Assembly (NCBI GenBank): GCA_000146465.1
Contig: CP001946.1
Direction: 5' to 3' (one strand)
Length of the DNA: 64,000 nucleotides
The stretch's first letter is position 1, and every line of letters starts with the position of its first letter. The notes below the pieces were generated by a model. It had not been told where the DNA came from. It was given only the letters and a program-made list of their open reading frames with translations, and ran no database searches. Shown here in pieces: positions 2,436-52,165 of the stretch. The translations under genes and the position numbers were made by a program.

Positions 2436-2513
2436 AGCATTCTTTTTTCCTTTTCGGCCGATATTTCAGTGTGTCTAAATAGAAAGAAGCCTTGAAAATC
2501 ACCACCGTGTTGT

Positions 2514-18875: not shown

Positions 18876-18932
18876 AGAGGCTTTTGAACATTAAATCCTG
18901 TGAATTTAGAGACTTACTTCTGTTGGCCCCAG

Positions 18933-27516: not shown

Positions 27517-28167
27517 ATGATTGGGAGGATGAGGAATGAGTATGACTTATTGGACGAAAGAATCAGCAGATTCTGGCACCAAGCCTTCAAGGGAGCAGTG
27601 GAAGAGAGAATACTCCTGAAGGACCTGAATCTACCCCTTGCACGGATAAAACGGCTGATGAAGATTGAGGAGGGGGTCAGGATGGTTGCTTCAGAGGTCC
27701 CTGTCTTGTTTTCGATGATAACAGAAAAGTTCATTGAGGAGCTCACTCTTCGGGCCTGGATAAACACCGAGGAAAACAAGAGAAGGATACTACAGAAGTC
27801 TGATCTAACAGCTGCTGTGAAGACGTCCGAGATGTTTGACTTTCTTGTATATATTGTCCCAAGGAATGATCTTTTGCATCCTTTCAATCATCTAGTGCCC
27901 AACAAGGTGCATCATGGTGGAGAAGACTTTTCCGCCAGAGGAGATGCATATGTGAAGCAGCATGTGCTTGGAGAAAGGCAGATGATGGAAGACATGGCCG
28001 AGAAGATGGGGAATCCGCACCAGGGCTTTTATCCCCAGGAGCATCGGGTAGGGGATGAGGTTGCTAAATCCATGGCCAACTCTCATGCGGATGACTATAG
28101 AAGAGGGTTTGATATTCCCTTTGGTAGAGACATGTCTGCAGATATAGCACCAAGTTCCTTCAGATGA
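27517..28167 (+). CDS. HAP5: CCAAT-binding factor subunit HAP5/NF-YC (histone fold)
   Basis: FW...LPLARIKRLMKIEEGVRMVASEVPVLFSMITEKFIEELTLRAW...EENKRRILQKSDLTAAV...FDFLVYIVPR is the NF-YC histone-fold core. Confidence 0.75.
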   Translation: MIGRMRNEYDLLDERISRFWHQAFKGAVEERILLKDLNLPLARIKRLMKIEEGVRMVASEVPVLFSMITEKFIEELTLRAWINTEENKRRILQKSDLTAAVKTSEMFDFLVYIVPRNDLLHPFNHLVPNKVHHGGEDFSARGDAYVKQHVLGERQMMEDMAEKMGNPHQGFYPQEHRVGDEVAKSMANSHADDYRRGFDIPFGRDMSADIAPSSFR

Positions 28168-30465: not shown

Positions 30466-32673
30466 TTATTGCATTCCATCTCCAAAGAAGGATCTTTCAA
30501 TTTCAAGCTCGACTTCCTTTTTTGGGATTTTTCCAAGGAGGTTCTGTCCTTTGACCTTGAAGTCACTTGCATAAAGAGAATTAAGAGGCTTTCCCTTGTA
30601 TCCCTGAAGAAAGGCCCGGACCAGACTTTGAGCTCTTCTTGTCTGCGACTTCAGTACGTCCTCCTTTAGGTTTATGCATGTCGATTGATCTATTCCCAAG
30701 GTCTCGCTGAAGGCTTTTGGCCCGTCCTCCTGCTTTATGCATAAAGTAAGAGATGACACAATCGAGGAGTGTGCATTCTCGAGGGCTCCTGAGTTGTATG
30801 ATACCATAAATAGATAAACAGCCCTGTATGTGTCAAATGGCCCGGTATGGATGTTGAATGTTTCAGACACCTTCTTTACGACTGTCGGATCATCTATTTG
30901 GAGAATTTCAACCAACTCGTTGATGTAAGGGCACAGTTTGTGCTCCCGGGAGGGGCCCGATGCGTGGGCAATCACATGGACCAAGGACTTCACACAGACA
31001 ATAAGATCTCCCGGATCCTCCGAGACCCCCCATTCATTTACAAGTCGGCCAATCTCCTTCTGAATAAATGGGCCTTGGTTTTCCAAATAGCCCAGGAGAT
31101 CTCTGTTAAAGCAAGAAGTATCTATAAGCGAATAGGTGTCCAAGTCAGAATAGATTCTTTGAAGTATCTCCTCAGGAACATCTCCCAACATCCTAAGGAT
31201 GGCAAAACATCTATCAAACGGGCCTTTCTCCAAAAACGTTCTGTAGTAGGAGCTTGAAAGCCCTCGGAACTTCTCAGGACTTCTTTTGAGATAGAAGAAA
31301 AATCTCATAAGCTCGTCATATGACCAGTTTCCTGTAAATTTCTCCTCCCGCCCAAGTCTTATAAAACATTCTACAATAACCTCGTTGGTGTAGGTCTTGT
31401 CAGATACATTGCATCTGCTCAGTATATGTTCAAGCTGCGGAGCAGAGAGAGGGAACAGCTCCAGAATCCTAATGACCAGTTTGCAAGGCTCTTTTTCGCT
31501 AAGGTCAAAATATTGGATATAGTCGACAGCAGAAAAGTCTTTTCTATAGATCGCCAGTGAGCAGCACAGAACAGGGTCACTGAATGTTAGATCTTGGGGA
31601 ACATTTGATGAATGCGAAGCCCCAAAAAGCTTCTTCAGGAAGTAAAGAGCCAGCTTTCTTCCAATGCAATCTCCATTGACACCTATAAAGCTTATCACAG
31701 ACCTTGGATAATTCCTGCAGATGGCGTTGAACAACCCAAACACTTCTCCTTCAATCTCTGTCCTTTGTCTTTCGTCGATGCTAATGTAGATCGAAACAAC
31801 CTCCGCTAGAACATCTCCAACTATTTCCTCCGATCCGTCCCGCCCAAAAAGCTTTGTCCAGAACTCAACAGATGCAGAAAAGGTGATCAAATCCTTCCGA
31901 AGGCCCTTAAAAACATACTCGTACATCTTCTTGACATTGCTTACTCGAGGCGCCTTGTCCTTCAGATTATTAAAACATATTATCATTCCATAGGAGATGT
32001 CCATCCTCGACGCAAGATCAATGACACTTTCTATATCAAGCATTTCCATCCCGTCATTGAGAAACTCGATAGTCTTTTCGGGAAATCCAGCCCCTCTTCT
32101 CAGTATTATGCTGCAGTCAAAGGTCCGAGGCATCATCTTAAGGGACTCCGTCAAAATCGGAATGATGTGCTCTGCCATCGAGTCATCAAACAAGGGCATG
32201 TATGCATTTGACATAACGCCACATCCTCTTTTCAGCTCGTCTTTTCTTTCTTCGTTAATCTCCTGGCTGTAGTTGCACAGGTAGAGAAAGTTTTCCAGAA
32301 TCTTATATCCCATTTCCTTCTTGTGGGAGAGAAGATCAATAATGATCGAGAAAAACTGGGGAAAAGTAGAAGGCCACTCATAAATCCCAAGAAGGGCAAA
32401 TACCTGTGCCGCCTTATCAGACTCGTTGCTTTGGACAAGGCCGGCCATAAAGCCCATCTCCTCTTCTAGAGAAATCCCTGCCATCTTCTTGCTTCTAACT
32501 CGCTGCTCAATAACCTTCAGAGCATAAAACTTGACCTCTGGAATTGCAGAGGCCATCAGCTCCTTGGCTGGAGCGAGATCTTCCGAGCTCACACATCTCT
32601 GTATTTCCCTTTCTATCTCTGGCATTGCCGATGGATCGTCTTTTAGCCTAACAAACAGGTCTTCTAGCCTCAT
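30466..32673 (-). CDS. karyopherin-beta family exportin (reduced, 735 aa; exportin-T/Los1-type candidate)
   Basis: The N-terminus has an importin-beta N-terminal-like region (EIQRCVSSEDLAPAKELMASAIPEVKFYALKVIEQRV), and the rest is a HEAT-like helical repeat protein. Subfamily not resolved. Confidence 0.4.
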   Translation of the reverse strand: MRLEDLFVRLKDDPSAMPEIEREIQRCVSSEDLAPAKELMASAIPEVKFYALKVIEQRVRSKKMAGISLEEEMGFMAGLVQSNESDKAAQVFALLGIYEWPSTFPQFFSIIIDLLSHKKEMGYKILENFLYLCNYSQEINEERKDELKRGCGVMSNAYMPLFDDSMAEHIIPILTESLKMMPRTFDCSIILRRGAGFPEKTIEFLNDGMEMLDIESVIDLASRMDISYGMIICFNNLKDKAPRVSNVKKMYEYVFKGLRKDLITFSASVEFWTKLFGRDGSEEIVGDVLAEVVSIYISIDERQRTEIEGEVFGLFNAICRNYPRSVISFIGVNGDCIGRKLALYFLKKLFGASHSSNVPQDLTFSDPVLCCSLAIYRKDFSAVDYIQYFDLSEKEPCKLVIRILELFPLSAPQLEHILSRCNVSDKTYTNEVIVECFIRLGREEKFTGNWSYDELMRFFFYLKRSPEKFRGLSSSYYRTFLEKGPFDRCFAILRMLGDVPEEILQRIYSDLDTYSLIDTSCFNRDLLGYLENQGPFIQKEIGRLVNEWGVSEDPGDLIVCVKSLVHVIAHASGPSREHKLCPYINELVEILQIDDPTVVKKVSETFNIHTGPFDTYRAVYLFMVSYNSGALENAHSSIVSSLTLCIKQEDGPKAFSETLGIDQSTCINLKEDVLKSQTRRAQSLVRAFLQGYKGKPLNSLYASDFKVKGQNLLGKIPKKEVELEIERSFFGDGMQ

Positions 32674-33702: not shown

Positions 33703-34890
33703 TTACAGCTTATCAAAAATGCTTTCGATTGCTTGGTAGTTCAACTTTCCGGAAATCCTTTTGTCCAAACTTCTGAACGCCTCAACAATAGATCCAAACT
33801 CCTCGTTTTTTCTTCTTCTCTTCCCCTTTTTGACACTACTTTTCGTCCTCTTCTCTCGCTCTCTCATGAACTCTCCATACATCTCTTCCCAGACAATCTC
33901 CCTTCTCTTGGTCTCCTCAGGCGAAAGGATGTTCCTCTCGATCTCCTCGGAGTCAGAGAGAATTTCGCTGTCCACACTGCTCTGTGGTGTCGAATAAGGA
34001 ATCACCTCGCTACTTCCCGACTCACACTCCTGCTTCTTTGCCATCTCCATTCTCTTCATCTTAACTGCAGGCGGATCCTCCTCCTTCTCAATCCATGTTG
34101 CATTGAACTCCTCGATACTAAGGTTGGCACTCTCTGTATCTCCTATCTCCTTCAGCCTCTTGTTGATTGTACTCACAGAGACATGGACTATCTTTGCTAT
34201 CTCGTATATACTTCTCTCCTCTCCCACTATCCGAGATGCAATCAGGAGTGCTGCTCCGCACAAGTTGTTTGGCCTTCTTCCAACAACAATCCAGTCCCTC
34301 TTCATCCTGCTTATCAGCCTTAGGGAAAGCCCCAGCACCTCGGTGCTTTCAAACCGCAGCCGAGACACAAACCGTGGCATATACAGAGATGGATCGATCA
34401 ACGGAATGTCAATTCCAAGCATGTTTGTTATCTTCAGAAAACTCTTTCCTATCTTAAACACATCGATATGCAGTGCATTCGAAAAATCCATCAGCATGTG
34501 TGGTGTCCTCTCCTGTCTGCAGACAATGTATATGCAGGCACTCAGAGTGTACAAAATCGATTTCCCCTTGCTTAGATTGTACTGGAGAAGAAGCTTGTAC
34601 CACCTGAACGAGCATTCCACGTGGTCAACCCCAAGCCCCAGAGATGCACATATACCGCTTATTGTGTTTTTGATGTAGTAACTGGAATCAACAAATCCGG
34701 TCCCCACATTTCGGGAATCCATCCCGACAATCTGCCCGTTCAATGTGGCTTTCGGTCCCTCTGTGTTGAAGTTCAGAGATGCAACAATTGCGTTCTCCTC
34801 CTGAACCATACCACACACTGTGCAGTAGACAGCTCCTTGTGCTGTGTCTTCCGCAAAATCCCCAGAGGAACAATTAGAACATATACCCAT
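33703..34890 (-). CDS. BRF1: TFIIIB subunit Brf1 (TFIIB-related factor; Zn ribbon + cyclin repeats + C-terminal extension)
   Basis: N-terminal zinc ribbon CSNCSSGDFAED...CTVCGMV, TFIIB-like cyclin-fold repeats, and an acidic/basic C-terminal tail as in Brf1. Confidence 0.65.
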   Translation of the reverse strand: MGICSNCSSGDFAEDTAQGAVYCTVCGMVQEENAIVASLNFNTEGPKATLNGQIVGMDSRNVGTGFVDSSYYIKNTISGICASLGLGVDHVECSFRWYKLLLQYNLSKGKSILYTLSACIYIVCRQERTPHMLMDFSNALHIDVFKIGKSFLKITNMLGIDIPLIDPSLYMPRFVSRLRFESTEVLGLSLRLISRMKRDWIVVGRRPNNLCGAALLIASRIVGEERSIYEIAKIVHVSVSTINKRLKEIGDTESANLSIEEFNATWIEKEEDPPAVKMKRMEMAKKQECESGSSEVIPYSTPQSSVDSEILSDSEEIERNILSPEETKRREIVWEEMYGEFMREREKRTKSSVKKGKRRRKNEEFGSIVEAFRSLDKRISGKLNYQAIESIFDKL

Positions 34891-34973: not shown

Positions 34974-35654
34974 TCACTCGTATTCTTTAAAGACATATAA
35001 GTTGCTCCACACACAGAAGTCCTTTACAAGTGCCCTGGGCTCCTTTAGAAACTCAACCTCTCTATGCTTCTTCTCCAAGATCTCGTTCAACTCCCCATCT
35101 CCAATCCTTATTCCCTTCCGAGCCTCTCCTCCAACAAGATCCACAGATTCAAGCTTATACTCTACCTCTCCCTTCTTGCTTTCCTTCTCCAAGCTCGACT
35201 TAACAAATTCTTTCGTAAACTCATCGAACATCACATCGTCCTCCACCACCTCCTTCTCAACCTCGTTCATATCGCTCAGGTTGCTTCCGTTTCTCATCAC
35301 CATCCTCAGCTGTGCATTCTTCGGAAGGACTCGAAGGATGTGAAGAATAGACTCTTCGCTTCCCATGCTGTATCTATCGTTCAAGTAGTTTTTCATCGTG
35401 ACCTGATACCTCAGAAACGACAAAAGCTCAGGAATTTGATACTCATACTCCTCATAAACCTCCTCCACAAGAATTCTGCACACTAGCTCGGGAACAATCT
35501 CTCTTCCATGTCTCTTTTTTATTCGACATCCCAGTTGCTCAATATAGTATCTCAAGATGTCTGTCAGAACATTTAGTGCTTGGTCTGCCGTCTTATCAAA
35601 TCCACTCTGTGACAGCACCTCCACAACTGCAAGCTTCAGTATCTTAGTACTCAT
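34974..35654 (-). CDS. TAF8: TFIID subunit TAF8-like (bromodomain-associated/BTP histone-fold domain)
   Basis: KILKLAVVEVLSQSGFDKTADQALNVLTDILRYYIEQLG matches the BTP/histone-fold domain of TAF8. The start is at the cat at 35652-35654 (MSTKIL); the track extends 17 codons further. Confidence 0.5.
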   Translation of the reverse strand: MSTKILKLAVVEVLSQSGFDKTADQALNVLTDILRYYIEQLGCRIKKRHGREIVPELVCRILVEEVYEEYEYQIPELLSFLRYQVTMKNYLNDRYSMGSEESILHILRVLPKNAQLRMVMRNGSNLSDMNEVEKEVVEDDVMFDEFTKEFVKSSLEKESKKGEVEYKLESVDLVGGEARKGIRIGDGELNEILEKKHREVEFLKEPRALVKDFCVWSNLYVFKEYE

Positions 35655-35780
35655 GTTTGATTTCATCTGAAATCCGAAGGAGTAATTTTTTATCCGACAA
35701 ATCATGTGTCTATTTACCCATCAATTAACCAAAACCTTGGCCATGGAAATCCAGTCATTTGCCCAACTATTTCTCTCCCC

Positions 35781-36503
35781 TTACTCTTCTCCCAGGCTCT
35801 TCTTCATGGCCTCAAGCTCTTTAAGTAGGACTTCAAGTTGTAACTCAAATCTCTTTTGAAGAATCGGATTCAATGCACTTTCCATCTGCTTTCTCTTCTC
35901 CTCAACACTTTTCTCTAGACGTTCAAGCTCCTGGTTCTTTGGCTTCTCTTCCTTTTCATGCTTGGTCTCGGCAAAGGGGATTTTGGACTCTTCCGAACGT
36001 GCTTCAGAATAATCCACCAGCTTTTTCTCGATCTCTGCAGCCAGCATGTCCAGGTCATCAGACGTCTCTTTCTCCTCCTTTGTGATGACCTCAACCAGCC
36101 GGGCCCTCATGTCCTTTTCTAGAAGCTCCCCAACTTTCTTTTCAATCTCCTCAACATACTCGATCTTGCTATTTTTCTTCCGGAATCTTCTTGCCTTCGC
36201 ATACTTCAGCGGTGGGCACAACCCACTCAGCTCATGAATCTCCCGCTCCCTCTCAAAGTCAAAATCTCCATGCGGGTATACAACCACAAGAGTGGATATG
36301 TCTGCCACCTTGTAGTGTTGTCTATTATCCATTGTCTTTTGTGATTCGACTATACATGGGAGTCTTACAATTATCCCCGGATACTTCTGTCCACCATACG
36401 ACAAGACAACAGACTTTTCATTGCAAACCTCCAGTGTCGAGTTCTTGAGATCAACCTCATTCTTTATCGATTCATGAAGTCGGAGAATAAACTGCTGCTC
36501 CAT
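35781..36503 (-). CDS. TAF7: TFIID subunit TAF7
   Basis: EQQFILRLHESI...GIIVRLPCIVESQKTMDNRQHYKVADISTLVV...KARRFRKK parallels TAF7 ENQFILRLP...[43 protein letters not shown]...RKRRFRK. The C-terminus is a coiled coil. Confidence 0.65.
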   Translation of the reverse strand: MEQQFILRLHESIKNEVDLKNSTLEVCNEKSVVLSYGGQKYPGIIVRLPCIVESQKTMDNRQHYKVADISTLVVVYPHGDFDFEREREIHELSGLCPPLKYAKARRFRKKNSKIEYVEEIEKKVGELLEKDMRARLVEVITKEEKETSDDLDMLAAEIEKKLVDYSEARSEESKIPFAETKHEKEEKPKNQELERLEKSVEEKRKQMESALNPILQKRFELQLEVLLKELEAMKKSLGEE

Positions 36504-36561: not shown

Positions 36562-36936
36562 ATGAGGTCTTATATGAAGGACGGCCTGAGAATAGGATTC
36601 ACCAAGGAGACTTCTACAGATCATATCGAGGCTCTACCTCTGGAGATAGCTAGGAAGTTTGAACTACTATCGGGAATCTGCGACAACAGGTCCATACAAG
36701 AGTTTCCTGCTGCGATAATTAAAGAGATAGTCGAAATGTGCAATGATTTAAGAGACCTCGCTCCTCACTATAACATGCCTGAGGAATATGTTGAGTATGT
36801 TAGAGAGAACAAGGATGTCCTGGGATACTTTGAGGAATCCGAGAACAATCTTAAAGGAGAGGAAATGAGGATAATCAACAAGAGAAGGATATTCGATGTC
36901 TTTAGGAGTATGATGGAGAAAATGGAGGAGATGTAG
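36562..36936 (+). CDS. hypothetical protein (124 aa) between TAF7 and the Tra1-like gene
   Basis: The first ATG is at 36562; the track starts at an upstream TTG. Acidic and helical. No recognised motif. Confidence 0.3.
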   Translation: MRSYMKDGLRIGFTKETSTDHIEALPLEIARKFELLSGICDNRSIQEFPAAIIKEIVEMCNDLRDLAPHYNMPEEYVEYVRENKDVLGYFEESENNLKGEEMRIINKRRIFDVFRSMMEKMEEM

Positions 36937-37072: not shown

Positions 37073-40000
37073 ATGATGAAGGACCTTTTTGTAGGTAGTG
37101 AACCAAGCGAGGTGAAGGCCAACCGGCTCAAGAAGTACATGGAAAGCGGAAGATTCCTTGAAACTCTTTTTTTCCCACATGAGTTTTTGGAGTCACTAGT
37201 TTTATTTGCTATTCAGATACTCAACAGTACGGAACCTGAGAAAAAATCGTCATTTGTGTCTGGAGGGAATGAATCTCGCTACATTGTCCTCAGGCTTTTG
37301 AACAAGTTTTCGCTGAAAAGGATTAGGAATACAGGATTAGTGCATGCACTCCATTGTGTGCTTAGAAATGACAATCTCCCAAACGTGATTTTGTCACTGA
37401 AGGCATTAGGTTCTCTGAGCAGATCGGGGGTCATTGCAGGAGATCTGGTGGAGGTGCATGTTGGAGTCCTTCTTGGGATGGTTCACAACCTCTTTACAAA
37501 CCTGGAAAGTGGAGAAGAAGGGCTCATTGAGATATCGCTATTTACTCTTACAGAGATGCTGACCCATGCCAGGGTTTTTTTCCGTGGGTTGGAGTACCAT
37601 GCTGTGAAGATTGATCAATTTTTGGCCTGTGTGTATGGAAACATCAGAAGAGCTTTTGAAAACCGGAGATTCATGGATGGGATGATGCATAAAAGGACGT
37701 CTTCAATAAGCATGTGTTCTGGAATCTGTAGTCTCCTCAAGCTGACATATGAGCAGCTTCCTATTGTGTCGAAGTCAGGGCCTTATCATGTGTTTGCTTG
37801 TGAGGCAGCATTTGTTGGGATGTATTACTGTCCCTCCGATCTCCTGGACCTTAGGAAGGAGATCTACATGCTGTTTAGCAAGATGTGTATAGGAGACAAA
37901 GAGATGGTTCTTCCTATGATGGACAAAGTGTATATGGTTCCATTTCTTTTTTCTCCAGATGCACAGCCAATGAGCGTCAAGGGGATTGGAATGCTCTCTG
38001 AAATGCTCGTGCATGTTAAGGAGAACCTTAGCAAGGCAGCATACATGGAGTTTGGGTCGAAGGTATTCAATGTGCTTTTTTCAACCTGTTCTTCAATAAG
38101 GAGGCTATGCAAGGAAGTTCATGAGGGAGGAGAAGAAAGACAGAAATATCGGAGGAATGCAAGCGATATAATTAGCCAGGATATTGAAAGTCTCATAGTA
38201 TGTCTAGGGGCGGTAGAGAACACATGCAAATGCTTTGGAGGCAGGACAGGAGATTCCGAAGAACTCAGCCACATTTATCTCAAGAGCTTTTACGATATAA
38301 GGAATGGATTTGAAGGAATCCAGGGATTAGTAAGACTGGGATGCGCAGGCAAGGAGGAGGAGTTGAAGAAGGTTGTAAAGAAATTTGTCTCTGGATTTCG
38401 AGAAGTGATTGGAAGAGCGGGAATCCTTGAAAAGTCTGGAAATGGGATTGTCTTTTCTGTACCCGAGATCAATATCCTGTATGAGATATTTGAGAGGTCT
38501 TTTGATGTATTTTTGCATGAGTGCCTGTGCCAAGAGCAGGACATTGAAGAGTTTTTCTCTGTGCTGTCTCTTGTTAGAGAGCACATTGGAAGCGATATAG
38601 TCAAATGCCTTTCAGAAAGAATTGTGGAGTACAGCAAGAAAAACGGGGAGTTCTTTGGGATATGGAGATTGATGAGCAGCTCTGTAATTTTGGGAAACAC
38701 ATTCTGTGGATATGTACTTCCACGAATGATCGAGGAGCTCGATAGAGAGGGATTTGAATTTGTCAAGAGGGCAATGAGATATATTGTTCCGTTTTTTGGA
38801 AACGATATAAAGAAGATAAAGCGAGTCAATACATTCTTCATGCACAGGATAATATCAACTCTGTTGGCAGCCAAGAGGATGGAAAACTTCGAAATTTTGC
38901 TGGAGATCTTCAACATGTTTGGATCGATGCCTGAGAAGAGCAGCTTTTTCCAGAAATACATCTTCGACAACTTCTCAAGGATAGTTTCTCATCTTATGAA
39001 TCTTTATGAAGTTGAGGGAAAGAGCATATTTATAGAAATGATATTTTCCTTGCCAATAAGTATCAACCTACTTGAATCAGATATCCAATTTCTCATGAGA
39101 CCTATTGAAGAGGCCTTAATGCTTCATGGGCCAGTAAGAACCAAGGCGCTGTCTATTCTTGTGTATGTTCTTGACTTTTCAACACCAGATAAGATTTCGG
39201 GTCTTGAGAAGACATGGCAAAACATTTTAAATAACGTAGCAGAGGGCTTGAAGGATAGCACAATGCTGTCGTTGTGTTCGAGAATACTGGGGAAGCTCAA
39301 GAGCTATCACAAGACGTTTGTAGTAGATGGGAAGATGTTTGAAGAGACAAACGAAGATTTAAAACTTATTAGGATAGTGGTGGATGGAAAGCATGCAGTT
39401 CCTGGGCATCTCTTGTTTTTCGATGCAGTGCAGAAGATAAGGGGGGCCTTTGAGCTGTCTGAAAAGAGCTTTGGGCCTTCTGGTGTTCTCACCAGGTTCA
39501 GGAGTCTAGGGCCCCGATGTGGAGATGGAGAAGCCAAAGGCGCAGCATTCAGACTAGTGGAGAAGGTGGTGTGCCATCTGATGGGATGGAACTCCTCTGG
39601 AAAGAACTTGATTCAGAATTATTACGAGTCTCTTCTGGAGGAGATGGAAGAGATAGGAAGCATTCCAGACACATTGGATTACATACACTCGGTTCATGGG
39701 GTTATCTCTTCGTTAGGCGGGAGGAAATGCTCGGACAGTCGGCATTTGGCCCAGTATGTCTACGATGCAATCCTCACGCTCTTCAGTTGCCATGGAACCC
39801 CTTTTGAAAAGAAAGCTCTGGAACTCCTTCATTCTATTTTTGGAGTCGTGATACTCCACAAGATATCTACTCTTCACAGGCCCAAGGGGAAGAGATACAC
39901 GATTCTTCTTGACACAGACACATTCCTTGATGCACTTGTAGAGTCGTTTTGCGATACCGAGAACTCGATGCCTTTCAAGGTACTCTCTGTAATGTTTGTC

Positions 40001-43000
40001 CAGATGTACGAGATGTTTGGAAGGAAATGCGAATACTTCTGTGTTGAGATGTATAGGGCTGTTTTCTCCAAGCTCAAGGCCATGTGCAAGTCTTCGAACA
40101 AGAGATGTAGAGACGCTGGAATCAATGGAATCATATGTCTTGCAGCAACAATGCCTATTCGAGAGCTTGTGATGCTCCGAGTCCCGGAAGATTCGTTTTC
40201 ATGTACATACCTTTATCTTCTTCCTCGGGGATCCGAAGATTTCTCTCTTCCCCTCCGGCTGGTTGTCTTTATCTTGAGATTCAGATACAAGGGAATTAGG
40301 AATTATTTGCTCTCCTCTGGAATGGAGAGGCACTTCATGATGTCGCATTTCAGACCGTTTGTTGCAGGCCTCTTTGATGGGAGAAAGGATGTTATGGACT
40401 TTTCCCAAGCTGTGTTGAGAGAAGTGTTCCAGAGCTATGGGCCTCGCCTACTGGAAAGACACAAGGACATGGTTTTTGGGTTTTTCAAGAAGGAATATGT
40501 AATAGGAAGCAGGGAAACAATGATAATGCACTTGAAAGTGTTTATTTTCTGCGTTCGAGAGGGCAAGTGTCCGTTTGACGATTGCGAGATGAAGTATCTT
40601 ATCGAGAAGTTTCTGGATGGGATTGCAAGCAACGAGGAGTGGAGAGGAACTGGAGGGGTTTATATGGGCTTTGACCACTGTGAAAGAGACGAAAGCACAA
40701 ACAACGAGGACTTTTGCAAGTGCAACAGATGCGGGAAGGGCGAAGAAGACACAGAGATTGTTCTAGGAGGGATCCATAAGAAGTTATCTTCGCTATCTAT
40801 GAGGGATTTGATGGAAATTGCGCTTAAAAACAAAATGGATGTGGTTTGCGGAGATTGCAAGAAAAAGATCTACAGACATAAGGAGGAGTGGTCTCCTAGA
40901 TTCAGTAACGAGGGGGAGGAGTTGATTTACTGGATAAGAGAGTTTTATTTGCTTGTCATTGAGTACAGGAAGTCCTTTGAGGAGATAAGAACAGCGGTTT
41001 TGTATTTATTGAGATATGTTTCGGACGATTCCTCGGATTACCTGCAGAAGGCACACAATATACGGCCGCAAGAGACAGAAGAGGTAATATCAGAGGAAGT
41101 GGAGAAGTGTCTGTCTGAGAAGGTCGACTACAAGATCCTCAACATGTTACTGTGTGCACATTCGATATCGGGGATTCGGGAGAATCCAAGGGTAGGGATG
41201 CTTGTTCTGAAGATTCTGAAAGAATTCAGGATTCCGAAAGAGTTTGCAATAATAGCACAGAATGACAGATACTCGATGCTGGCAAAGGCGTATGAAATAG
41301 GAATTAGACTGAAAAACCAGGAGGGGCTGTGCAACGAGATTCTGGAAACATACTTTGTACTTGACGGATATGCCAAGAGTTACACTTCCAGGATGTATCC
41401 TCGAATGATTAAGTATGTAGAGGATCTTGGATCACAGTTTGTAAGTTGTATGTTCCGAAGAATTCAAGACCCATCGGCTTACGAGTTGTGTTCACAGCTC
41501 TGCAAGGACTCGGCCAAGCTAAGAGAAATGGTGTTTGGAATGAAGGACAGACTTGCGGAGAGAATATCGCAAATATATTGCAGACTGGAAGGAAATGACT
41601 CCATAGAAAAGGATGTGTTTGTGTATTCGTATCGGTTTCTTGATCTTGCAGGGTATGAGATGAAGCCTGTCGACATTCAGGTTATTCTTGGGATTTATGC
41701 TGATGTGAAGACAAAGCCCAGACATGCTGTTGAAATGAGGGGGCTGATAAATAGATGCATCGACAGGTTTTCTCCAGAGAACCTCGAGACACTGTTCAAC
41801 ATAGACCCATGGTTTATGTCTGTGGATGGGATAGACCCGGGATATCTTACAGAGGGGCTTTCACCCTTGACTCTTAGGGGGATTATCCGGAGTATTGATA
41901 AGAGAAACAGACCCATGATTGAGAATTTGAGCCTATCTCTTGGAGAAAACAGACACATGCTGATTGAGATGTTTGTGGAGATGGGGATCAGGTCTGAGAA
42001 GCTTATTGGATACTGCAAGGAGAATCTACACATCACGAACCTTAGAGGGCTCCTGCTCTACTATCTATGCACATTCGAGCCCTTGCATGTCTATTTTGAA
42101 CTCCTGTTCAAGCTCCCTTACGAAGACAGGAAGTACACGCTATACTGTCTAGAAAGGATTGTCGATGTTTTTGATCCTCTTCTCTTTGAAGAGATAATTC
42201 TGATTGTGCTGCGCTCTGAAGTAAGGTTCAAGACAAGTCTCTGTATTCTGTTTCCTCTACTTCTATCGAGGCCCAGTCTTATCAGCAAGAAGATTGTGCT
42301 TGAGCTTACAGGGTCGATCTATAAGCTTCTTGATTCAGAGAACTTCCCCCAGCAGAGAATGGGGTTTAAGCTGTTTGAAGTTCTATACAACAGGTGTCTA
42401 TTAGGAGATGGATCGGGGAATATATGCAGAGAGTATGATTGGATCATAAGGAACATATACACTCTCATGTTTGTGAGGTTTATTCATATGGATCAGGACT
42501 TGGATGGAGATCTTCTTGAAAAGTACAATCTGGAGCTTGTTTTTGAGTTGGTGGAGTACTCTCCCAAGGAGCTAAATCTTAACAACATGTTCAGCTTTCT
42601 CGAAGCGGAGATTCTGAGCAAGAAGAATGAGGAGTACAAGATATGGTTTTTGAAAAGCATTGGAATGGCCATAGCGCCGTATTTCCGATCAAGGGCTTTG
42701 GGAATCAAGGTTATTGAGTATCTGGTGCGCATTGGGATGTGGAATTACAAGCTTCTTCGGGAGGAGCTGGGGGTTGTTGTGTACGACCCGAGCCTACTGT
42801 ACAATCTCCTTTGCATGCTTTGTAGCAAAGCTGGTGAAAGAGCTGGTTTGGGATGCAAGGCTCATAGGGATGATGTAGAAAACATGGAGATATGCTTGAT
42901 AGTGATAAGACATTTATTTGCAGAGTACAATAGAGAGAGAGGAGAAGCCAACCAGAAATATGTGGAGGAAGGACTTGAGAAGCTGTTCTATGTTTTATCT

Positions 43001-46000
43001 CTATACTCTGAAATGAAGAATATTGTGTGCTCGGTAACTAGGCTGTTCGTGGAAGCATTCAAGGACAATTCCTCTCGGATAGATCCATTAGTAAGCAAGA
43101 TAAGTTTCTTGATGTCTGATTTCAGAACGTCGCTTGCAGACAAGATTGAAATGGCTTGTCTCTTGAGCAATCGAGGGCATGACAATGAGTTTCTTAGTGA
43201 GATGCTGCTTCCGGCCTTCAACAATTATCTCTACTCTGGAGTTACCTTTCCGTCAGGCCTGCAGAAGTTCTTTATGAAAGGAGTCAGTTCGAAAAACAGC
43301 ATCTTGAGGAATGGATATCTAGATCTGATGAACCGCATTGTTCCTGTAAGCAAGTGGATGAGACTTAAGTATCTGCTGGAAATGGAATGGAAGCACAACG
43401 CAAAGATAGGATACACAATGACGGCGATGATGATCCTTTCTTGCCACACAGCAGAACTGGAGGCAGAAAAGTACTCGGAAATAAGACCGAGCAAGGATAT
43501 TGAATATCCTTGGTCACGGGAGGGGATGAGATGCAAGGGAAATGTGAGCAGATGCAGTGGACTTGTTGCGAATCTTCTTGAAGATGTTGGCCTATACAGG
43601 TCCAAGGCGTCGAAGCCAGACCTCCTGGAAATTCTGTACCACTTCGACGATTCCCTACTTCCGGTGCTATCTGGAGTCTTAAGAACTACTGTATGTGGAT
43701 TGGATTCCGAGAAATGTAAAAGCATATTCGAAGGCTTTGTGAAGTTCTGCTCGGAGGTTACAGGAGAAGGGAAACTTCTTGGAGCCCTTGTTAGGGGTCT
43801 TGGGCCTATATATAGACATGCAGATCTATATGAGCTTATTAAGGTATTCCGAGGAGGAGAGGGATGGTACACGCTACTGGAGTATGCAGATGATAGGCAG
43901 AAGACAGAGATATACAGGAGATTGATGAACTTGGATGAATACTTTGGAATGTCGCGGTCGGTGTGTATTTTTCCTGAGACGATGCAGGCATATTTCCTTC
44001 AGCAAGTGGGAAAGACCAAGGAAGCACAGGATCTCTATGAGGAGATCCAAGCCAGAGCAGGAAAGCACAAGATATCTTTTGACGAAAGGGAGTACAAGCT
44101 GTGGCAAGATGAGTGGGTGGCATGTGCAAAAGAACTGCAGCAATGGGATGTATGCTACGATGCAGGAGTGGAGATCGGGGATGGCTTGCTAAGTGGAGAA
44201 TCGTTGTGGCATCTTTCGAACTTCACAAGCCAGAAGGCAGTGGAGAAACTCAAAAGCGTGATTGGCAAGGGAGTAGGATTTGAAAGAGAATTCCTCGATG
44301 TATTTGCAGATATATTTATGAAGTATTCGGCAGAGAGGATCAAGGGAATCCTAACAAAGAACATTGCAGAGCTCAGGAGTTACCCCGTAGGAAGTGGAGC
44401 AAACCTAAGAAATCTTATGTATCTGCAGATCATCATAGAAATGGTTGAGGCAGAGCCTATTTTTAACGACAAGATAGACTCGATAGAAGCATTGACATCG
44501 ATATCCTTCCGATGGAAGGACAAGGAGCCGTCCATCTACAGCTCTTTTGCAGAATGGAGCCTCTTCAAGACATGGAGAAAACATGTATATTCGAGATTGG
44601 GAATGGGAGAGAAGATGTGTGGCAGAGAGATGGGATACAAGCAGCCAGAAAGAGGTTACACAGAGGAGATGGGAAATTCCTTGGGTAGAAAGCCTATAGC
44701 ATCGCATTTGTTTTCTCCAAAAGAGATGAATGAGAACTATGCAAAGATAAAAAAGGAACTGGTGGCCCGAGGAACAAACGAATTGGCAAAGACTCTGAAC
44801 ATGTTTTCCAAGGCAGCCATCGACCATGGATACTATGATGTGGCTCTATTCCATCTTAAAGAAGTCTTTGACCTAAGCAGTGTAAAGGTAGGGGATGCCT
44901 TCCAGAAGGTTGTTTATGAGCTACTTTGCTTTCTCGGCAAGAAAGAGTACAAGATAGGAGCCGAGCAGTGCATGTCGGCAAACATACAACATTTCAGTGA
45001 TACACAGAATTCGGTACTATTCAACATCAAGGGGCTGTTCAATGAGAAGCTTGGAAAGGCTTCGGATGCCGAAAAATTCTATTTGCAGTCTGCACAGATA
45101 TGCAACACAGTTGGAGAAAACTGGCTCACATGGGCGAGTTTCTTGTTTGGTAGGATCGATGGAGATGCTCCAGAAGTAAAGGAAGACGTCTTTGTTGCTC
45201 TTCTACAAGCCATTACCTACTGCAACGGCCCAAATGCAAGGAAAGGAATTCTTAAGATGATTCTACTTATGGGAGAGCATTCCTCGCTCTGTGATGTGGA
45301 GTTGTTCCACAAGGTTCTTCAAGAGATTGACATCTCTCGATTTATATACTTTATTCCGCAACTGATTGGGCTACTGGAAAAGGAAGACTCAAGGTTGGTG
45401 CAAGCCATACTTGGCAAGATCTCGGAAGAGTATCCGCAAGCAGTGATAGGGCCCCTTAAGGCAGCTAAGGAAAGAATAAGAAGAAGCTTGGGGCTTGGAA
45501 AGGAAGATATAGAATGCAAGGTGGGGGAACACAAGGTAGAAGGTAGAAGTAGCGAAGATTCAAAGAGTCTTGGGACTGGACTGGTGACTGGAGAGAAGAA
45601 CATGTTTTTGGAGAATGTTATGTGTATATACAACCGGATAAAAAACGCCCAACCAGGGAAAGAGTTCTGGAAGATCCTTCACTATCTTCACAATTCGCTG
45701 AACTCCTTCGCCTTTAAGGAGGAGGAGCTTGTGTATCTGGAGATCGAGAAGATCTTCAACAGTGCTGTGTCGCATGTTGTGCATGGGGCTGTTCCATCGG
45801 GCCTTGGCCATGCTAAGATTCTGAACGAGCTTATTTTCCAGGTTTCTGTTTCTTCCCTAAGCCGGAAACTCAAGGAAGAGCTTACATCTTCCATTCTCAA
45901 GATGAGGTGCATCTGCCCTCTTGAGAACATCGATGAAATGGTACGGTTCAAAAGTAAGGTGCAGAAGATTGTAGAAGAATCCTTCCATAGGATGGACAAG

Positions 46001-47380
46001 TCCGAGGAGTCTGAGGTGAATCTACTGCTATACAGATCCGACTACAAGCATCGAGTATTTGGACAATACTCGGAAATAAGAAGAAGTTACAAGAGCCTTG
46101 CGAGCATAGAGATGTTTGAGCCTCGGCAGCCCTACATGTACAGAAAAAGAATGGGATGCAATAGAATTCACCTGAGAGGAAGCGATGGGAAGATGTACAG
46201 ATACGAGATGAAAGAGTTAAGGAAGATGAGGTTCTCTGAGTTTGTCCTTCCACAGATATCTTTGATGATTAACGAGGCGATGGGCGAGGACACCAACTTG
46301 CGAAGGAGAGGTGCGGAGTTGAGGTTGTTTGTTCCCTTTATTGCTAGTGAAGTTCTTGCATTGAAATGGATCAAGGAGCCTGTCTATTACATGGATAGTA
46401 TATTGGAAGAGGGGCTAAGTAGATACAAGATGAACATTGATCAATGTGTGCTTCTTTATCTTGATCACTTTGCAACTATCTACGATGGGTTAGACTCAAG
46501 TCCAGGGCATTTCGAGAACAGATATCAGCTGGAGAAGGGACTCACTGCAAGCCTAAAGCCGAGGATTCAAGGAGACGAATGCCCCAATATAAGGAAGAAA
46601 AAAGGCTTTCTTGAAAGCAAGGAGTCGCAGGAGAACCTCATAAACAATGTTAGAATGGTTATTGAGAGGCAGAGGGAGAAGTACACAAGTGGTTTGAGAC
46701 AGAACGAAGTCGAGTGTCTTGGATGCAATGAAAGAGGAGAGGGGATTTCTCCATGTACCTATAGATATGAAACCTCAAAGCGGCAAAGATACATGGCTTA
46801 CGAGAAGGTATACAACACCTTCAAGAAAACTAGCTTTGTGGATGATTACTTCAAGCTTATTTATGGAAACCTGGGAGGATACTTCCGATTTAAAAACAAA
46901 CTTCTTTCCAGTTATTCAGCCAACAGTGTCTTTTTGTACACGTTCTCTGTTGTAGACAGGAGGCCAAGAAACCTTGCCATCACCAAGACTACCGGCTGTT
47001 TTATGAATAGAGACGTCTGTTGCGAGGAAGCTGAGATATCGAGCAAAGGAAAGGGAATGGGGGCCATAGGACCAGGATACCAGAAGCTCTTTGGGAAAGA
47101 AGGGATAGAAGGCACAATGGTGTCTATTATGTATCATTATGCCGGGATGGTAAACAAGGGAGATTGGAGTAAGGATCTGGTGAAAGCTCTACTTGAAGGC
47201 AGGTTTATAGACATGACGGGAAAAGGACTCAAGGGAGCTCACAAGGAAATGCTAAGTAGAGTCTCTGAGATGATTGGAAAAGGCGAGGATGGGACCCATA
47301 ATGTGATTCCGATGGTTAGTGAGTGGATGGACATGTTCAAGCTAGCACAGATTGATCCAAGACATATGTGCTGGATGTGA
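37073..47380 (+). CDS. TRA1: PIKK-family giant protein, Tra1/TRRAP-like pseudokinase (HEAT/FAT repeats + PI3K-like domain + FATC), 3435 aa
   Basis: A single 10.3-kb ORF. The C-terminal region aligns with the PIKK kinase domain: IHLRGSDGKMYRYEMKELRKMRF...NLRRRGAELRLFVPFIASEVLALKWI parallels mTOR [26 protein letters not shown]...SLRKNLSIQRYAVIPLSTNSGLIGWV. The catalytic loop reads VVDRRPRNLAI (mTOR DRHPSNLML) and the activation-loop DFG is replaced by NRD. Degenerate catalytic residues and this size fit Tra1 rather than TOR or ATR. FATC-like end ...IDPRHMCWM. Confidence 0.6.
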   Translation: MMKDLFVGSEPSEVKANRLKKYMESGRFLETLFFPHEFLESLVLFAIQILNSTEPEKKSSFVSGGNESRYIVLRLLNKFSLKRIRNTGLVHALHCVLRNDNLPNVILSLKALGSLSRSGVIAGDLVEVHVGVLLGMVHNLFTNLESGEEGLIEISLFTLTEMLTHARVFFRGLEYHAVKIDQFLACVYGNIRRAFENRRFMDGMMHKRTSSISMCSGICSLLKLTYEQLPIVSKSGPYHVFACEAAFVGMYYCPSDLLDLRKEIYMLFSKMCIGDKEMVLPMMDKVYMVPFLFSPDAQPMSVKGIGMLSEMLVHVKENLSKAAYMEFGSKVFNVLFSTCSSIRRLCKEVHEGGEERQKYRRNASDIISQDIESLIVCLGAVENTCKCFGGRTGDSEELSHIYLKSFYDIRNGFEGIQGLVRLGCAGKEEELKKVVKKFVSGFREVIGRAGILEKSGNGIVFSVPEINILYEIFERSFDVFLHECLCQEQDIEEFFSVLSLVREHIGSDIVKCLSERIVEYSKKNGEFFGIWRLMSSSVILGNTFCGYVLPRMIEELDREGFEFVKRAMRYIVPFFGNDIKKIKRVNTFFMHRIISTLLAAKRMENFEILLEIFNMFGSMPEKSSFFQKYIFDNFSRIVSHLMNLYEVEGKSIFIEMIFSLPISINLLESDIQFLMRPIEEALMLHGPVRTKALSILVYVLDFSTPDKISGLEKTWQNILNNVAEGLKDSTMLSLCSRILGKLKSYHKTFVVDGKMFEETNEDLKLIRIVVDGKHAVPGHLLFFDAVQKIRGAFELSEKSFGPSGVLTRFRSLGPRCGDGEAKGAAFRLVEKVVCHLMGWNSSGKNLIQNYYESLLEEMEEIGSIPDTLDYIHSVHGVISSLGGRKCSDSRHLAQYVYDAILTLFSCHGTPFEKKALELLHSIFGVVILHKISTLHRPKGKRYTILLDTDTFLDALVESFCDTENSMPFKVLSVMFVQMYEMFGRKCEYFCVEMYRAVFSKLKAMCKSSNKRCRDAGINGIICLAATMPIRELVMLRVPEDSFSCTYLYLLPRGSEDFSLPLRLVVFILRFRYKGIRNYLLSSGMERHFMMSHFRPFVAGLFDGRKDVMDFSQAVLREVFQSYGPRLLERHKDMVFGFFKKEYVIGSRETMIMHLKVFIFCVREGKCPFDDCEMKYLIEKFLDGIASNEEWRGTGGVYMGFDHCERDESTNNEDFCKCNRCGKGEEDTEIVLGGIHKKLSSLSMRDLMEIALKNKMDVVCGDCKKKIYRHKEEWSPRFSNEGEELIYWIREFYLLVIEYRKSFEEIRTAVLYLLRYVSDDSSDYLQKAHNIRPQETEEVISEEVEKCLSEKVDYKILNMLLCAHSISGIRENPRVGMLVLKILKEFRIPKEFAIIAQNDRYSMLAKAYEIGIRLKNQEGLCNEILETYFVLDGYAKSYTSRMYPRMIKYVEDLGSQFVSCMFRRIQDPSAYELCSQLCKDSAKLREMVFGMKDRLAERISQIYCRLEGNDSIEKDVFVYSYRFLDLAGYEMKPVDIQVILGIYADVKTKPRHAVEMRGLINRCIDRFSPENLETLFNIDPWFMSVDGIDPGYLTEGLSPLTLRGIIRSIDKRNRPMIENLSLSLGENRHMLIEMFVEMGIRSEKLIGYCKENLHITNLRGLLLYYLCTFEPLHVYFELLFKLPYEDRKYTLYCLERIVDVFDPLLFEEIILIVLRSEVRFKTSLCILFPLLLSRPSLISKKIVLELTGSIYKLLDSENFPQQRMGFKLFEVLYNRCLLGDGSGNICREYDWIIRNIYTLMFVRFIHMDQDLDGDLLEKYNLELVFELVEYSPKELNLNNMFSFLEAEILSKKNEEYKIWFLKSIGMAIAPYFRSRALGIKVIEYLVRIGMWNYKLLREELGVVVYDPSLLYNLLCMLCSKAGERAGLGCKAHRDDVENMEICLIVIRHLFAEYNRERGEANQKYVEEGLEKLFYVLSLYSEMKNIVCSVTRLFVEAFKDNSSRIDPLVSKISFLMSDFRTSLADKIEMACLLSNRGHDNEFLSEMLLPAFNNYLYSGVTFPSGLQKFFMKGVSSKNSILRNGYLDLMNRIVPVSKWMRLKYLLEMEWKHNAKIGYTMTAMMILSCHTAELEAEKYSEIRPSKDIEYPWSREGMRCKGNVSRCSGLVANLLEDVGLYRSKASKPDLLEILYHFDDSLLPVLSGVLRTTVCGLDSEKCKSIFEGFVKFCSEVTGEGKLLGALVRGLGPIYRHADLYELIKVFRGGEGWYTLLEYADDRQKTEIYRRLMNLDEYFGMSRSVCIFPETMQAYFLQQVGKTKEAQDLYEEIQARAGKHKISFDEREYKLWQDEWVACAKELQQWDVCYDAGVEIGDGLLSGESLWHLSNFTSQKAVEKLKSVIGKGVGFEREFLDVFADIFMKYSAERIKGILTKNIAELRSYPVGSGANLRNLMYLQIIIEMVEAEPIFNDKIDSIEALTSISFRWKDKEPSIYSSFAEWSLFKTWRKHVYSRLGMGEKMCGREMGYKQPERGYTEEMGNSLGRKPIASHLFSPKEMNENYAKIKKELVARGTNELAKTLNMFSKAAIDHGYYDVALFHLKEVFDLSSVKVGDAFQKVVYELLCFLGKKEYKIGAEQCMSANIQHFSDTQNSVLFNIKGLFNEKLGKASDAEKFYLQSAQICNTVGENWLTWASFLFGRIDGDAPEVKEDVFVALLQAITYCNGPNARKGILKMILLMGEHSSLCDVELFHKVLQEIDISRFIYFIPQLIGLLEKEDSRLVQAILGKISEEYPQAVIGPLKAAKERIRRSLGLGKEDIECKVGEHKVEGRSSEDSKSLGTGLVTGEKNMFLENVMCIYNRIKNAQPGKEFWKILHYLHNSLNSFAFKEEELVYLEIEKIFNSAVSHVVHGAVPSGLGHAKILNELIFQVSVSSLSRKLKEELTSSILKMRCICPLENIDEMVRFKSKVQKIVEESFHRMDKSEESEVNLLLYRSDYKHRVFGQYSEIRRSYKSLASIEMFEPRQPYMYRKRMGCNRIHLRGSDGKMYRYEMKELRKMRFSEFVLPQISLMINEAMGEDTNLRRRGAELRLFVPFIASEVLALKWIKEPVYYMDSILEEGLSRYKMNIDQCVLLYLDHFATIYDGLDSSPGHFENRYQLEKGLTASLKPRIQGDECPNIRKKKGFLESKESQENLINNVRMVIERQREKYTSGLRQNEVECLGCNERGEGISPCTYRYETSKRQRYMAYEKVYNTFKKTSFVDDYFKLIYGNLGGYFRFKNKLLSSYSANSVFLYTFSVVDRRPRNLAITKTTGCFMNRDVCCEEAEISSKGKGMGAIGPGYQKLFGKEGIEGTMVSIMYHYAGMVNKGDWSKDLVKALLEGRFIDMTGKGLKGAHKEMLSRVSEMIGKGEDGTHNVIPMVSEWMDMFKLAQIDPRHMCWM

Positions 47381-52082: not shown

Positions 52083-52165
52083 GGTGGCGTGGCCGAGCGG
52101 TCTAAGGCGGCAGACTTAAGATCTGCTATCGGAAGATGTCGTGGGTTCGAACCCCACCGCCACCA
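52083..52165 (+). tRNA. tRNA-Leu (anticodon UAA), class II with long variable arm
   Basis: Acceptor GGTGGCG/CGCCACC and a 3-bp D-stem (GCC/GGC) with an 11-nt D-loop. Anticodon stem GCAGA/TCTGC with loop CTTAAGA, so anticodon TAA. A 14-nt variable arm. T-arm GTGGG-TTCGAAC-CCCAC. Discriminator A. No encoded CCA. The A-box TGGCCGAGCGG and B-box GGTTCGAACC are internal. Confidence 0.8.

Follow-up and report, generated by a model that had tools for sequence, protein, structure and literature searches.

Tra1/TRRAP is the one member of the PIKK family without kinase activity, a scaffold of about 400 kDa which binds transcription activators. In Microsporidia, the loss of TOR is documented (PMC2078597, PMC2997006), as had been stated in an earlier note on the DNA studied here. 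The E. cuniculi kinome of 2007 described a Tra1 homologue as 'not evident' and raised the question of how such a parasite manages without Tra1 (PMC2078597), and a survey of four microsporidian kinomes from 2014 omitted the Tra1 gene (PMC4280135). From its supposed absence, a genome paper of 2024, which recovered GCN5 from each of the 36 microsporidia it surveyed and ESA1 from each except one, argued that microsporidian GCN5 acts outside SAGA, or even on the host (PMC10989860). The Tra1 gene is, however, present and under constraint in Encephalitozoon and across Microsporidia (Nematocida, Vairimorpha, Spraguea and others), including V. bombi. As orthologues occur throughout the phylum and some of their records are already labelled TRRAP, this finding corrects the literature rather than introducing a protein of a new kind; for the same reason the retention of the gene in a minimal genome, previously thought notable, is not special to E. 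intestinalis.

In the window, by which we mean the whole analysed stretch of 64,000 nucleotides of E. intestinalis DNA, the gene is one uninterrupted, intronless open reading frame (ORF) on the plus strand (37073-47380) which encodes 3435 amino acids plus stop. Re-calling this ORF yielded 3435 codons without a stop and 16.1% of the window, in agreement with the 16% stated before. At a GC content of about 43%, such a stop-free run is impossible by chance, thus the ORF is real. Its product matches E. intestinalis ADM11504.1 at 100% identity; this entry is named 'PI3/PI4 protein kinase' in GenBank, where a length of 3434 aa indicates that the second Met was taken as the start. The E. cuniculi orthologue is ECU05_0540, and the close orthologues from Encephalitozoon species, Ordospora and relatives have 3213-3462 aa, with the ORF intact and full-length in all examined.

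For the orthologue profile, 10 Encephalitozoon/Ordospora sequences were used. A word-indexed homologue search returned the same 19 proteins when it was repeated with this profile, and other microsporidia were reached only by an exhaustive profile search. A search of NCBIfam gave no matches, and our literature search found no paper mentioning ECU05_0540. P0019 was rejected, as it proved to be part of a Tra1 gene that has introns and belongs to an unrelated eukaryote.

The protein displays the full Tra1 architecture of HEAT solenoid, FAT domain, PI3K-like domain and FATC tail, all encoded on the plus strand. The N-terminal HEAT solenoid (aa 1-2270; 37073..43882) is collinear with the Finger, Ring and Clasp of fungal Tra1, and its N-terminal part aligns with Nematocida TRRAP in BLASTP. 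It contains a Pfam Tra1_ring match (aa 737-1027; 39281-40153) which, with 28.9 bits, exceeds the cut-off of 27; Pfam Tra1_central did not reach its threshold in the E. intestinalis protein. The FAT domain (aa ~2271-2800; 43883..45472), identified by Pfam FAT (aa 2376-2730, E 1e-24) and by alignments to Tra1 structures, is the best-conserved region, with a pLDDT of mostly 85-94 in the AlphaFold model. It is followed by a region (aa 2801-2990; 45473..46042) which corresponds to the FRB of PIKKs in position only and is helical in the model, with low confidence at aa 2809-2837. The kinase-like N-lobe (aa 2991-3139; 46043..46489) has K3047 (nt 46211-46213) at the position of the ATP-binding Lys. 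The C-lobe (aa 3236-3400; 46778..47272) holds the catalytic-loop remnant VDRRPRNL (aa 3294-3301; nt 46952-46975) and, at the position of the DFG Asp, D3314 (nt 47012-47014). The FATC-like tail (aa 3401-3435; 47273..47377), ending LAQIDPRHMCWM and hence in CWM, aligns with Tra1/TRRAP tails (...LAQMD..W.PWL/F). Among the three Pfam profiles which the earlier note had proposed as a check, only FAT was matched: PI3_PI4_kinase scored 12.1 bits, below its cut-off of 27.1, and FATC was not detected in the E. intestinalis protein.

The protein resembles Tra1/TRRAP far more than it does any of the catalytic PIKKs. A single-sequence search of solved structures retrieved Tra1/TRRAP only (E 3e-39). With the full-length orthologue profile, Tra1/TRRAP structures were matched at E 2e-68 to 2e-45 and the next match was TOR2 at 0.016; ATM, ATR, DNA-PKcs and SMG1 were not among the matches of this search. 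With the profile of the last 476 aa, solved Tra1 structures were matched in the two lobes of their kinase domains (E 6e-14 to 2e-9), in line with the previously noted likeness of the C-terminal ~450 aa to the PIKK kinase domain. The kinase-like profile scored 45-456 bits on Tra1 C-termini versus 0.7 bits on the kinase domain of the E. cuniculi ATR-like kinase. When the microsporidian profile was compared with one of 10 fungal Tra1/Tra2 sequences, hhalign gave a probability of 100%, an E-value of 5e-65 and 3034 aligned columns, collinear from one end to the other, with columns 50-3454 of the former set against columns 52-3634 of the latter.

AlphaFold modelling of the C-terminal 1200 residues (aa 2236-3435; pLDDT 78.8, pTM 0.82) led to the same family in Foldseek, where ranks 1-17 were all Tra1/TRRAP chains (E 2e-32 to 2e-18; query-normalised TM-score, TMq, 0.68-0.74) and chains of mTOR, DNA-PKcs, ATM and ATR followed below them, from E 5e-17 with TMq 0.50-0.60; as the input alignment included Tra1 sequences, this structural ranking partly depends on the sequence result. 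A model of the last 476 aa built from the 10 close orthologues alone had a pLDDT of 37 and was set aside. The subfamily placement is based on profile and fold rankings, together with the E. cuniculi ATR-like kinase domain (PMC4280135 Table S1). Profile searches, hhalign, Foldseek, Tra1_ring and the score of the ATR-like domain all agree with the initial reading of a Tra1/TRRAP-like protein instead of TOR or ATR, and it is highly probable that the gene codes for Tra1/TRRAP of Encephalitozoon, an inactive-kinase scaffold.

With respect to the catalytic residues, the claim that the catalytic loop has lost its His was confirmed, Arg taking its place in VDRRPRNL, and His is found in none of the 10 orthologues (R in six, D in two, K and Q in one each). 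The DFG position had been read as NRD and the Mg-binding Asp as lost; this register is two residues off. In mTOR, as in the E. cuniculi ATR-like kinase, loop Asp and DFG Asp are 19 residues apart, and the residue at +19 from the loop Asp of E. intestinalis is D3314, so that this species does have the Asp, in a column which varies across the orthologues (D3/R3/M2/V1/T1). The E. cuniculi ATR-like kinase domain, which carries LCK, GDRHAEN and DLN, likewise has 19 residues from loop Asp to DFG Asp (GDRHAEN...DLN; PMC4280135 Table S1). E. intestinalis retains four of the five canonical positions (K3047, D3295, N3300 and D3314); at the DFG site it reads DVC, i.e. the Asp is kept and F and G are absent. 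The ATP-site motif, described as partly kept, does have K3047 (EMK) at the Lys position, but the clade is divided there between five K and five R. The loop Asp and Asn positions read D8/N1/E1 and N8/K2, and both residues, missing from fungal Tra1, are present in eight of the 10 orthologues.

The invariant Lys, the DRHxxN and the DFG-type motif of catalytic PIKKs are thus not conserved in this group. Because the catalytic positions are not fixed within the clade, a pseudokinase is the best reading, its putative inactivity being deduced from the lack of the His and of both F and G in DFG, and from the differences between orthologues; judged from the sequences, this pattern fits relaxed constraint. 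The kinase-like lobes are conserved as much as the HEAT and FAT regions, which together with the intact ORFs indicates selection for a structural role. The most likely reason why kinase surveys missed the gene is that kinase-domain models fail on such a diverged pseudokinase, as illustrated by the 12 bits of PI3_PI4_kinase.

The sole unusual feature of the protein is a pair of clade-specific inserts of 85-95 aa with four invariant Cys each. Insert 1 (aa ~1189-1275; 40637..40897) is located in the HEAT ring and has C1215, C1217, C1259 and C1262 (CxC...CxxC) as a candidate zinc site; in alignments it is absent from fungal, Nematocida, Vairimorpha and Spraguea Tra1. Insert 2 (aa ~3140-3235; 46490..46777) lies inside the pseudokinase domain, after the N-lobe and ahead of those C-lobe helices which precede the catalytic loop, approximately where mTOR carries its LST8-binding element. 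Its invariant residues C3170 (ECPN), C3215/C3218 (CLGC) and C3228 form another candidate zinc site, in a region of low model confidence. Both inserts probably form small zinc-stabilised surface modules. A more far-reaching suggestion, which we regard as unlikely, is that the Encephalitozoon/Ordospora Tra1 has been remodelled by these two predicted zinc modules into a protein with new docking sites in place of adaptors lost from strongly reduced SAGA/NuA4-type complexes, and that DRRPxN with the Lys and Asp, as a loop in part restored to an active-site-like state, might bind a ligand.

The retained residues could also be taken to indicate a catalytically active PIKK, i.e. a divergent TOR, ATR/Mec1, ATM/Tel1, DNA-PKcs or SMG1. 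The PIKK architecture, a catalytic loop (DRRPRN) near the DRHxxN consensus, the Lys, Asp, Asn and DFG-position Asp of E. intestinalis and weak matches of the kinase-like profile to TOR2 N-lobes (E 4e-4) point in this direction. Such an enzyme is nevertheless extremely improbable, and this explanation is already largely refuted by the profile and Foldseek rankings, the score of only 0.7 bits on the ATR-like domain, the Tra1_ring match above its cut-off, the His missing throughout and the variable Lys and DFG-Asp positions; in addition, partners of the TOR pathway are missing from microsporidia (PMC2997006). Alternatively, the kinase-like cleft of a genuine Tra1 orthologue might in Encephalitozoon still, or once more, bind nucleotides or metals, which would make the domain a ligand-regulated switch and not an inert plug. 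Encephalitozoon and close relatives do carry DR[RK]PxN, whose loop Asp and Asn are missing from the Tra1 proteins of fungi and of other microsporidia (SNRTPSR, GSRMPSR, VHFVPDK), and K, D, N and D occur together in three of the five closest orthologues (four Encephalitozoon species and one relative). However, the DFG-Asp position is occupied by Val in E. cuniculi and by Arg or Met in more distant relatives, which also carry Arg in place of the Lys, both Ordospora species have exchanged the loop Asn for Lys and O. pajunii the loop Asp for Glu, and His is present in none. As the FRB occludes the cleft in yeast Tra1 (PMC5576489) and the resemblance of a short motif to the active consensus may be due to chance, we consider this switch very unlikely.

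A different question is whether the Tra1 orthologue belongs to one reduced complex only, most likely an Esa1-based, NuA4-like one, comparable to S. pombe Tra2, with Gcn5 outside of a SAGA-type assembly. This is possible, albeit the less probable case. For E. cuniculi, acetyltransferases of the Esa1 class have been reported, two of them in one survey (PMC4174833), and a survey with HMMs, the dbHiMo table, lists no Gcn5 for this species, in conflict with PMC10989860. PMC6868236 describes yeast Tra1 as required for the integrity of NuA4 and as peripheral in SAGA, and S. pombe Tra2, not S. pombe Tra1, is among the 116 matches of the kinase-like profile, a very weak hint. On the other hand, GCN5 is reported in 36 of 36 microsporidian genomes, and V. 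bombi, reported to lack ESA1, possesses the Tra1 orthologue KAK6089847.1, which speaks against Tra1 being tied to Esa1 alone.

By analogy with yeast and human, the Tra1 orthologue of E. intestinalis would serve acetyltransferase complexes as their large docking module, be they NuA4/TIP60-like on Esa1, SAGA-like on Gcn5, or both, and such a complex may be recruited to promoters via contacts of Tra1 with DNA-bound activators. A search for SAGA/NuA4 subunits found none within the 64-kb window. The actin-related protein encoded there was identified as Arp5 of INO80, and the SWIRM-SANT protein is of the Rsc8/Swi3 type and not Ada2.

Upstream of the gene, all on the minus strand, are located TAF7 (TAFII55_N; 35781-36503), a histone-fold protein (34974-35705) and BRF1 (33703-34890). 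The naming of TAF7 and BRF1 in the earlier note was correct; the middle gene, called TAF8 there, can be assigned only to the Bromo_TP type of histone fold and may be TAF8 or TAF3. The gene order Tra1-like/TAF7/histone-fold/BRF1 is conserved in Ordospora. Microsporidia are not known to have operons, and we therefore give no functional weight to the adjacency of the Tra1-like gene to the other three.

With a Tra1 gene in place, a supposed exception to the construction of eukaryotic co-activators is removed, and Tra1-containing acetyltransferase complexes are now to be expected by default in eukaryotic genomes that are among the smallest. Database names of the orthologues such as 'PI3/PI4 protein kinase' or 'focal adhesion kinase' are misleading. 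As a naturally reduced system, the microsporidian Tra1 also lends itself to the question of which contacts Tra1 cannot do without.

Among the known systems, S. cerevisiae Tra1 (3744 aa; 5ojs, 6t9i, 8esc) shares its domain order with the E. intestinalis protein, is collinear with it from end to end, provides the best structural match to the AlphaFold model (8esc, TMq 0.74) and likewise lacks the catalytic His and the DFG motif. In contrast, the identity is just ~15-17%, the E. intestinalis protein is about 300 aa shorter, the two four-Cys inserts are absent from yeast, the catalytic loop reads DRRPRN with Asp and Asn kept versus NRTPHK, and the Arg-rich cleft motif SRREER of fungal Tra1 is replaced by RFSEF. 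The NuA4-specific paralogue S. pombe Tra2 (Q10064) is alike in architecture (56.7 bits with the kinase-like profile). Human TRRAP (7ktr, 8xvg, 9cad) belongs to the same family (profile E ~1e-45, Foldseek E 4e-31) and has a similar FATC tail of the MDPxWHPWL type, seen directly in Nematocida, but its kinase-like domain is farther away (E 5e-5 to 3e-4) than that of fungal Tra1. The orthologue EHY66067.1 from Nematocida ausubeli (3234 aa, 'atypical/PIKK/TRRAP protein kinase') is much less diverged (Tra1_ring 256 bits, Tra1_central 117 bits, PI3_PI4_kinase 74 bits, FAT present, FATC sub-threshold with 19.9 bits against 25.3); it is collinear in BLASTP, with 25% identity over FAT, and links the E. 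intestinalis protein to canonical Tra1. Further orthologues are V. bombi KAK6089847.1, Spraguea lophii EPR79717.1, Gurleya vavrai KAM0674978.1 and fragments from Hamiltosporidium and Edhazardia; these and the Nematocida protein lack both Cys inserts as well as the Asp and Asn of the catalytic loop. Finally, mTOR and the ATR-like ECU02_1130 of E. cuniculi share the superfamily fold (Foldseek E ~1e-16), and their catalytic loops are in register with that of E. intestinalis, the Asp-to-Asp spacing being kept; both, however, have the invariant Lys, DRH..N and DFG/DLN of the catalytic PIKKs.

The window comes from Encephalitozoon intestinalis ATCC 50506. The gene at 37073-47380 (+) is a single uninterrupted frame of 3435 codons, a length which at a GC content of ~43% excludes a chance origin. 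Its product is 100% identical to ADM11504.1, deposited in GenBank as 'PI3/PI4 protein kinase'; as the deposited protein has 3434 aa, its start has been placed at the second Met. Full-length orthologues of 3213-3462 aa, with 41-69% identity to the E. intestinalis protein, can be found in relatives, among them two Ordospora species and several more. The E. cuniculi orthologue (ECU05_0540 / CAD26573.1) was deposited in 2001 with 'similarity to hypothetical protein of the PI3/PI4 kinase family'. One E. hellem assembly calls its orthologue (WEL38607.1, sequence P0004) 'focal adhesion kinase', presumably an annotation error caused by a mix-up of the FAT acronym; the names in other records are 'FAT domain-containing protein' and 'PI3/PI4 protein kinase'.

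The earlier note had proposed a Tra1/TRRAP-like protein rather than a TOR or ATR, and this assignment is borne out by Pfam, phmmer, profile, profile-profile and Foldseek rankings alike. Pfam detected FAT (E = 1e-24), one of the three domains which the note had suggested searching for, as well as Tra1_ring (28.9 bits, cut-off 27), whereas another suggested domain, PI3_PI4_kinase, stayed under threshold in this protein (12.1 bits). A phmmer search of all solved-structure sequences gave ten distinct matches, every one of them Tra1 or TRRAP (best 3e-39). With a profile of ten orthologues from the Encephalitozoon/Ordospora clade, the Tra1/TRRAP structures scored 2e-68 to 2e-45 and the next match was TOR2 at 0.016; ATM, ATR, DNA-PKcs and SMG1 were not matched among the solved structures. 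When the profile was confined to the last 476 residues (the kinase-like profile), the values were 6e-14 to 2e-9 for fungal Tra1, 5e-5 to 3e-4 for TRRAP and 4e-4 to 2e-3 for TOR2. With this profile, Tra1 C-termini of fungi and other microsporidia scored 45-456 bits, and the ECU02_1130 kinase domain, from the E. cuniculi ATR-like PIKK (sequence taken from Table S1 of PMC4280135), scored 0.7 bits. That microsporidia have lost the TOR pathway, as the earlier note had mentioned, is documented in the literature (PMC2078597, PMC2997006).

A profile-profile alignment with ten fungal Tra1/Tra2 sequences began at position 50, ran to the C-terminus and took in 3034 columns (probability 100%, E = 5e-65), so that homology to Tra1 extends beyond the C-terminal region to the entire HEAT solenoid. 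An AlphaFold model of residues 2236-3435 (21 input sequences; pLDDT 78.8, pTM 0.82) was compared to the PDB with Foldseek: ranks 1-17 were Tra1/TRRAP chains of solved NuA4, TIP60 and SAGA complexes (E = 2e-32 to 2e-18, query-normalised TM-score 0.68-0.74), followed by mTOR, DNA-PKcs, ATM and ATR from 5e-17 (0.50-0.60). Because the input alignment held Tra1 sequences, this ranking is supportive with incomplete independence. The E. intestinalis protein is a diverged member of the well-known Tra1/TRRAP family.

The interest lies in the correction of a repeated claim that Tra1 is absent, and in lineage-specific cysteine inserts. The 2007 kinome of E. cuniculi listed two PIKKs and said of a Tra1p homologue that it 'was also not evident' (PMC2078597), the 2014 kinome of four species listed four E. 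cuniculi PIKKs with ECU05_0540 not among them (PMC4280135), and the 2024 Vairimorpha bombi genome paper, which reports loss of ESA1, repeats the absence of Tra1 and builds on it (PMC10989860). ECU05_0540 is mentioned in no indexed paper. The V. bombi genome itself encodes a Tra1 orthologue despite this citation (KAK6089847.1, in the P0025 cluster; 3538 aa, 'hypothetical protein').

When 1.84 billion representative proteins were searched exhaustively with the kinase-like profile (HMMER), 116 of them matched, and those whose scores fell between the close-family and the fungal ones came from other microsporidia. They include KAK6089847.1 of V. bombi, EHY66067.1 of Nematocida ausubeli ('atypical/PIKK/TRRAP protein kinase'), EPR79717.1 of Spraguea lophii, a Gurleya vavrai protein named 'transcription-associated protein 1' and fragments from Hamiltosporidium and Edhazardia. 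EHY66067.1 is collinear with the E. intestinalis protein and passes the Pfam thresholds for Tra1_ring (256 bits), Tra1_central (117 bits), PI3_PI4_kinase (74 bits) and FAT, with FATC sub-threshold. Orthologues in Nematocida, Vairimorpha, Spraguea, Gurleya and others indicate that Tra1/TRRAP is phylum-wide in microsporidia, and some records are already so named.

By orthology, the protein would serve as a large activator-binding scaffold for Esa1- and/or Gcn5-containing acetyltransferase complexes, these partners being suggested by the family. Each of the 36 microsporidia analysed was reported to have GCN5, and each except V. bombi to have ESA1 (PMC10989860); one HMM survey of E. cuniculi listed two Esa1-class enzymes and no Gcn5 (PMC4174833).

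Ordospora colligata has kept the gene order: BRF1, a histone-fold gene, TAF7, a small ORF, the Tra1-like gene, a 346-aa gene, Fcf1 and otubain. The histone-fold gene (34974-35705 (-)), called TAF8 in the earlier note, has a full-length Bromo_TP_like match (157 bits) and a weak one to Bromo_TP, with no match in solved structures or NCBIfam; its product has a histone fold of the TAF8/TAF3 type and may be either of the two. The small ORF (36562-36936 (+), ~124 aa), within the 570 bp that separate TAF7 from the Tra1-like gene, has no Pfam match, and is probably a real, uncharacterised gene since O. colligata has a 123-aa gene at the same position and strand (locus L002, 5379-5750).

Elsewhere in the window, the 565-aa actin-related protein at 18900-20597 (+) matches Arp5 of INO80 best among solved structures (E = 6e-24) and is not Arp4. 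The 400-aa protein at 13090-14292 (-), with SWIRM followed by SANT/Myb, matches RSC8, SMARCC2 and SWI3 best and so belongs to the core of an RSC or SWI/SNF remodeller; it is not Ada2. The 216-aa product of 27517-28167 (+) has a histone fold of the NF-YB/Dr1/archaeal-histone type (CBFD_NFYB_HMF, E = 3.5e-14). The acetyl-CoA synthetase at 8030-9928 (+), with ACAS_N and AMP-binding domains, supplies the acetyltransferase cofactor acetyl-CoA in this metabolically very reduced parasite. The 692-aa kinase with an OSR1/WNK-type C-terminal domain (55284-57362 (+)) is presumably the single WNK-family kinase of microsporidian kinome surveys. The 735-aa ORF at 30466-32673 (-) has a weak Xpo1-like match (E = 0.019), no significant Pfam family and a syntenic 743-aa Ordospora gene; tRNA-Leu (anticodon TAA, 52083-52165 (+)) is the sole tRNA gene that ARAGORN predicted in the window.

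The Encephalitozoon/Ordospora clade and sequence P0020 share two inserts which are missing from the Tra1 of fungi, Nematocida, Vairimorpha and Spraguea. In insert 1 (aa ~1189-1275) there are four cysteines, C1215, C1217, C1259 and C1262; insert 2 (aa ~3140-3235), within the kinase-like domain, has C3170 (ECPN), C3215/C3218 (CLGC) and C3228. None of the eight varies (10/10 sequences) in what are otherwise the least conserved segments (21-60% identity), suggesting putative structural zinc sites. Insert 2, modelled by AlphaFold with low confidence, corresponds roughly in position to the LST8-binding element of mTOR.

HMMER alignments with Tra1 and with the ATR-like kinase fix the catalytic register, and VDRRPRNL (aa 3294-3301) stands opposite GDRHAENI of the latter; the mTOR counterpart is GDRHPSNL. 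The loss of the catalytic His proposed in the earlier note holds throughout the ten orthologues (R 6, K 1, Q 1, D 2; H 0). The ATP-binding Lys position has K 5 and R 5, the loop Asp D 8, N 1 and E 1, and the loop Asn N 8 and K 2. With the DFG Asp column placed 19 residues past the loop Asp, the spacing of the ATR-like kinase, this position has D 3, V 1, T 1, R 3 and M 2; the NRD register of the earlier note was off by two, E. intestinalis having D3314 (DVC) and E. cuniculi Val. Such variation among close relatives argues against any maintained catalytic function in the Encephalitozoon-clade protein. The loops of other Tra1 proteins read SNRTPSR and GGRSPQK, GSRMPSR in Nematocida and VHFVPDK in Vairimorpha, so that the Encephalitozoon loop resembles an active one more closely than Tra1 loops normally do, which we take as a curiosity. 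The kinase-like lobes are conserved to the same degree as the HEAT and FAT regions among the ten orthologues, in agreement with the structural role described for this domain in yeast Tra1, where together with FATC it forms the Head core and lacks conserved catalytic residues (PMC5576489, PMC5982823).
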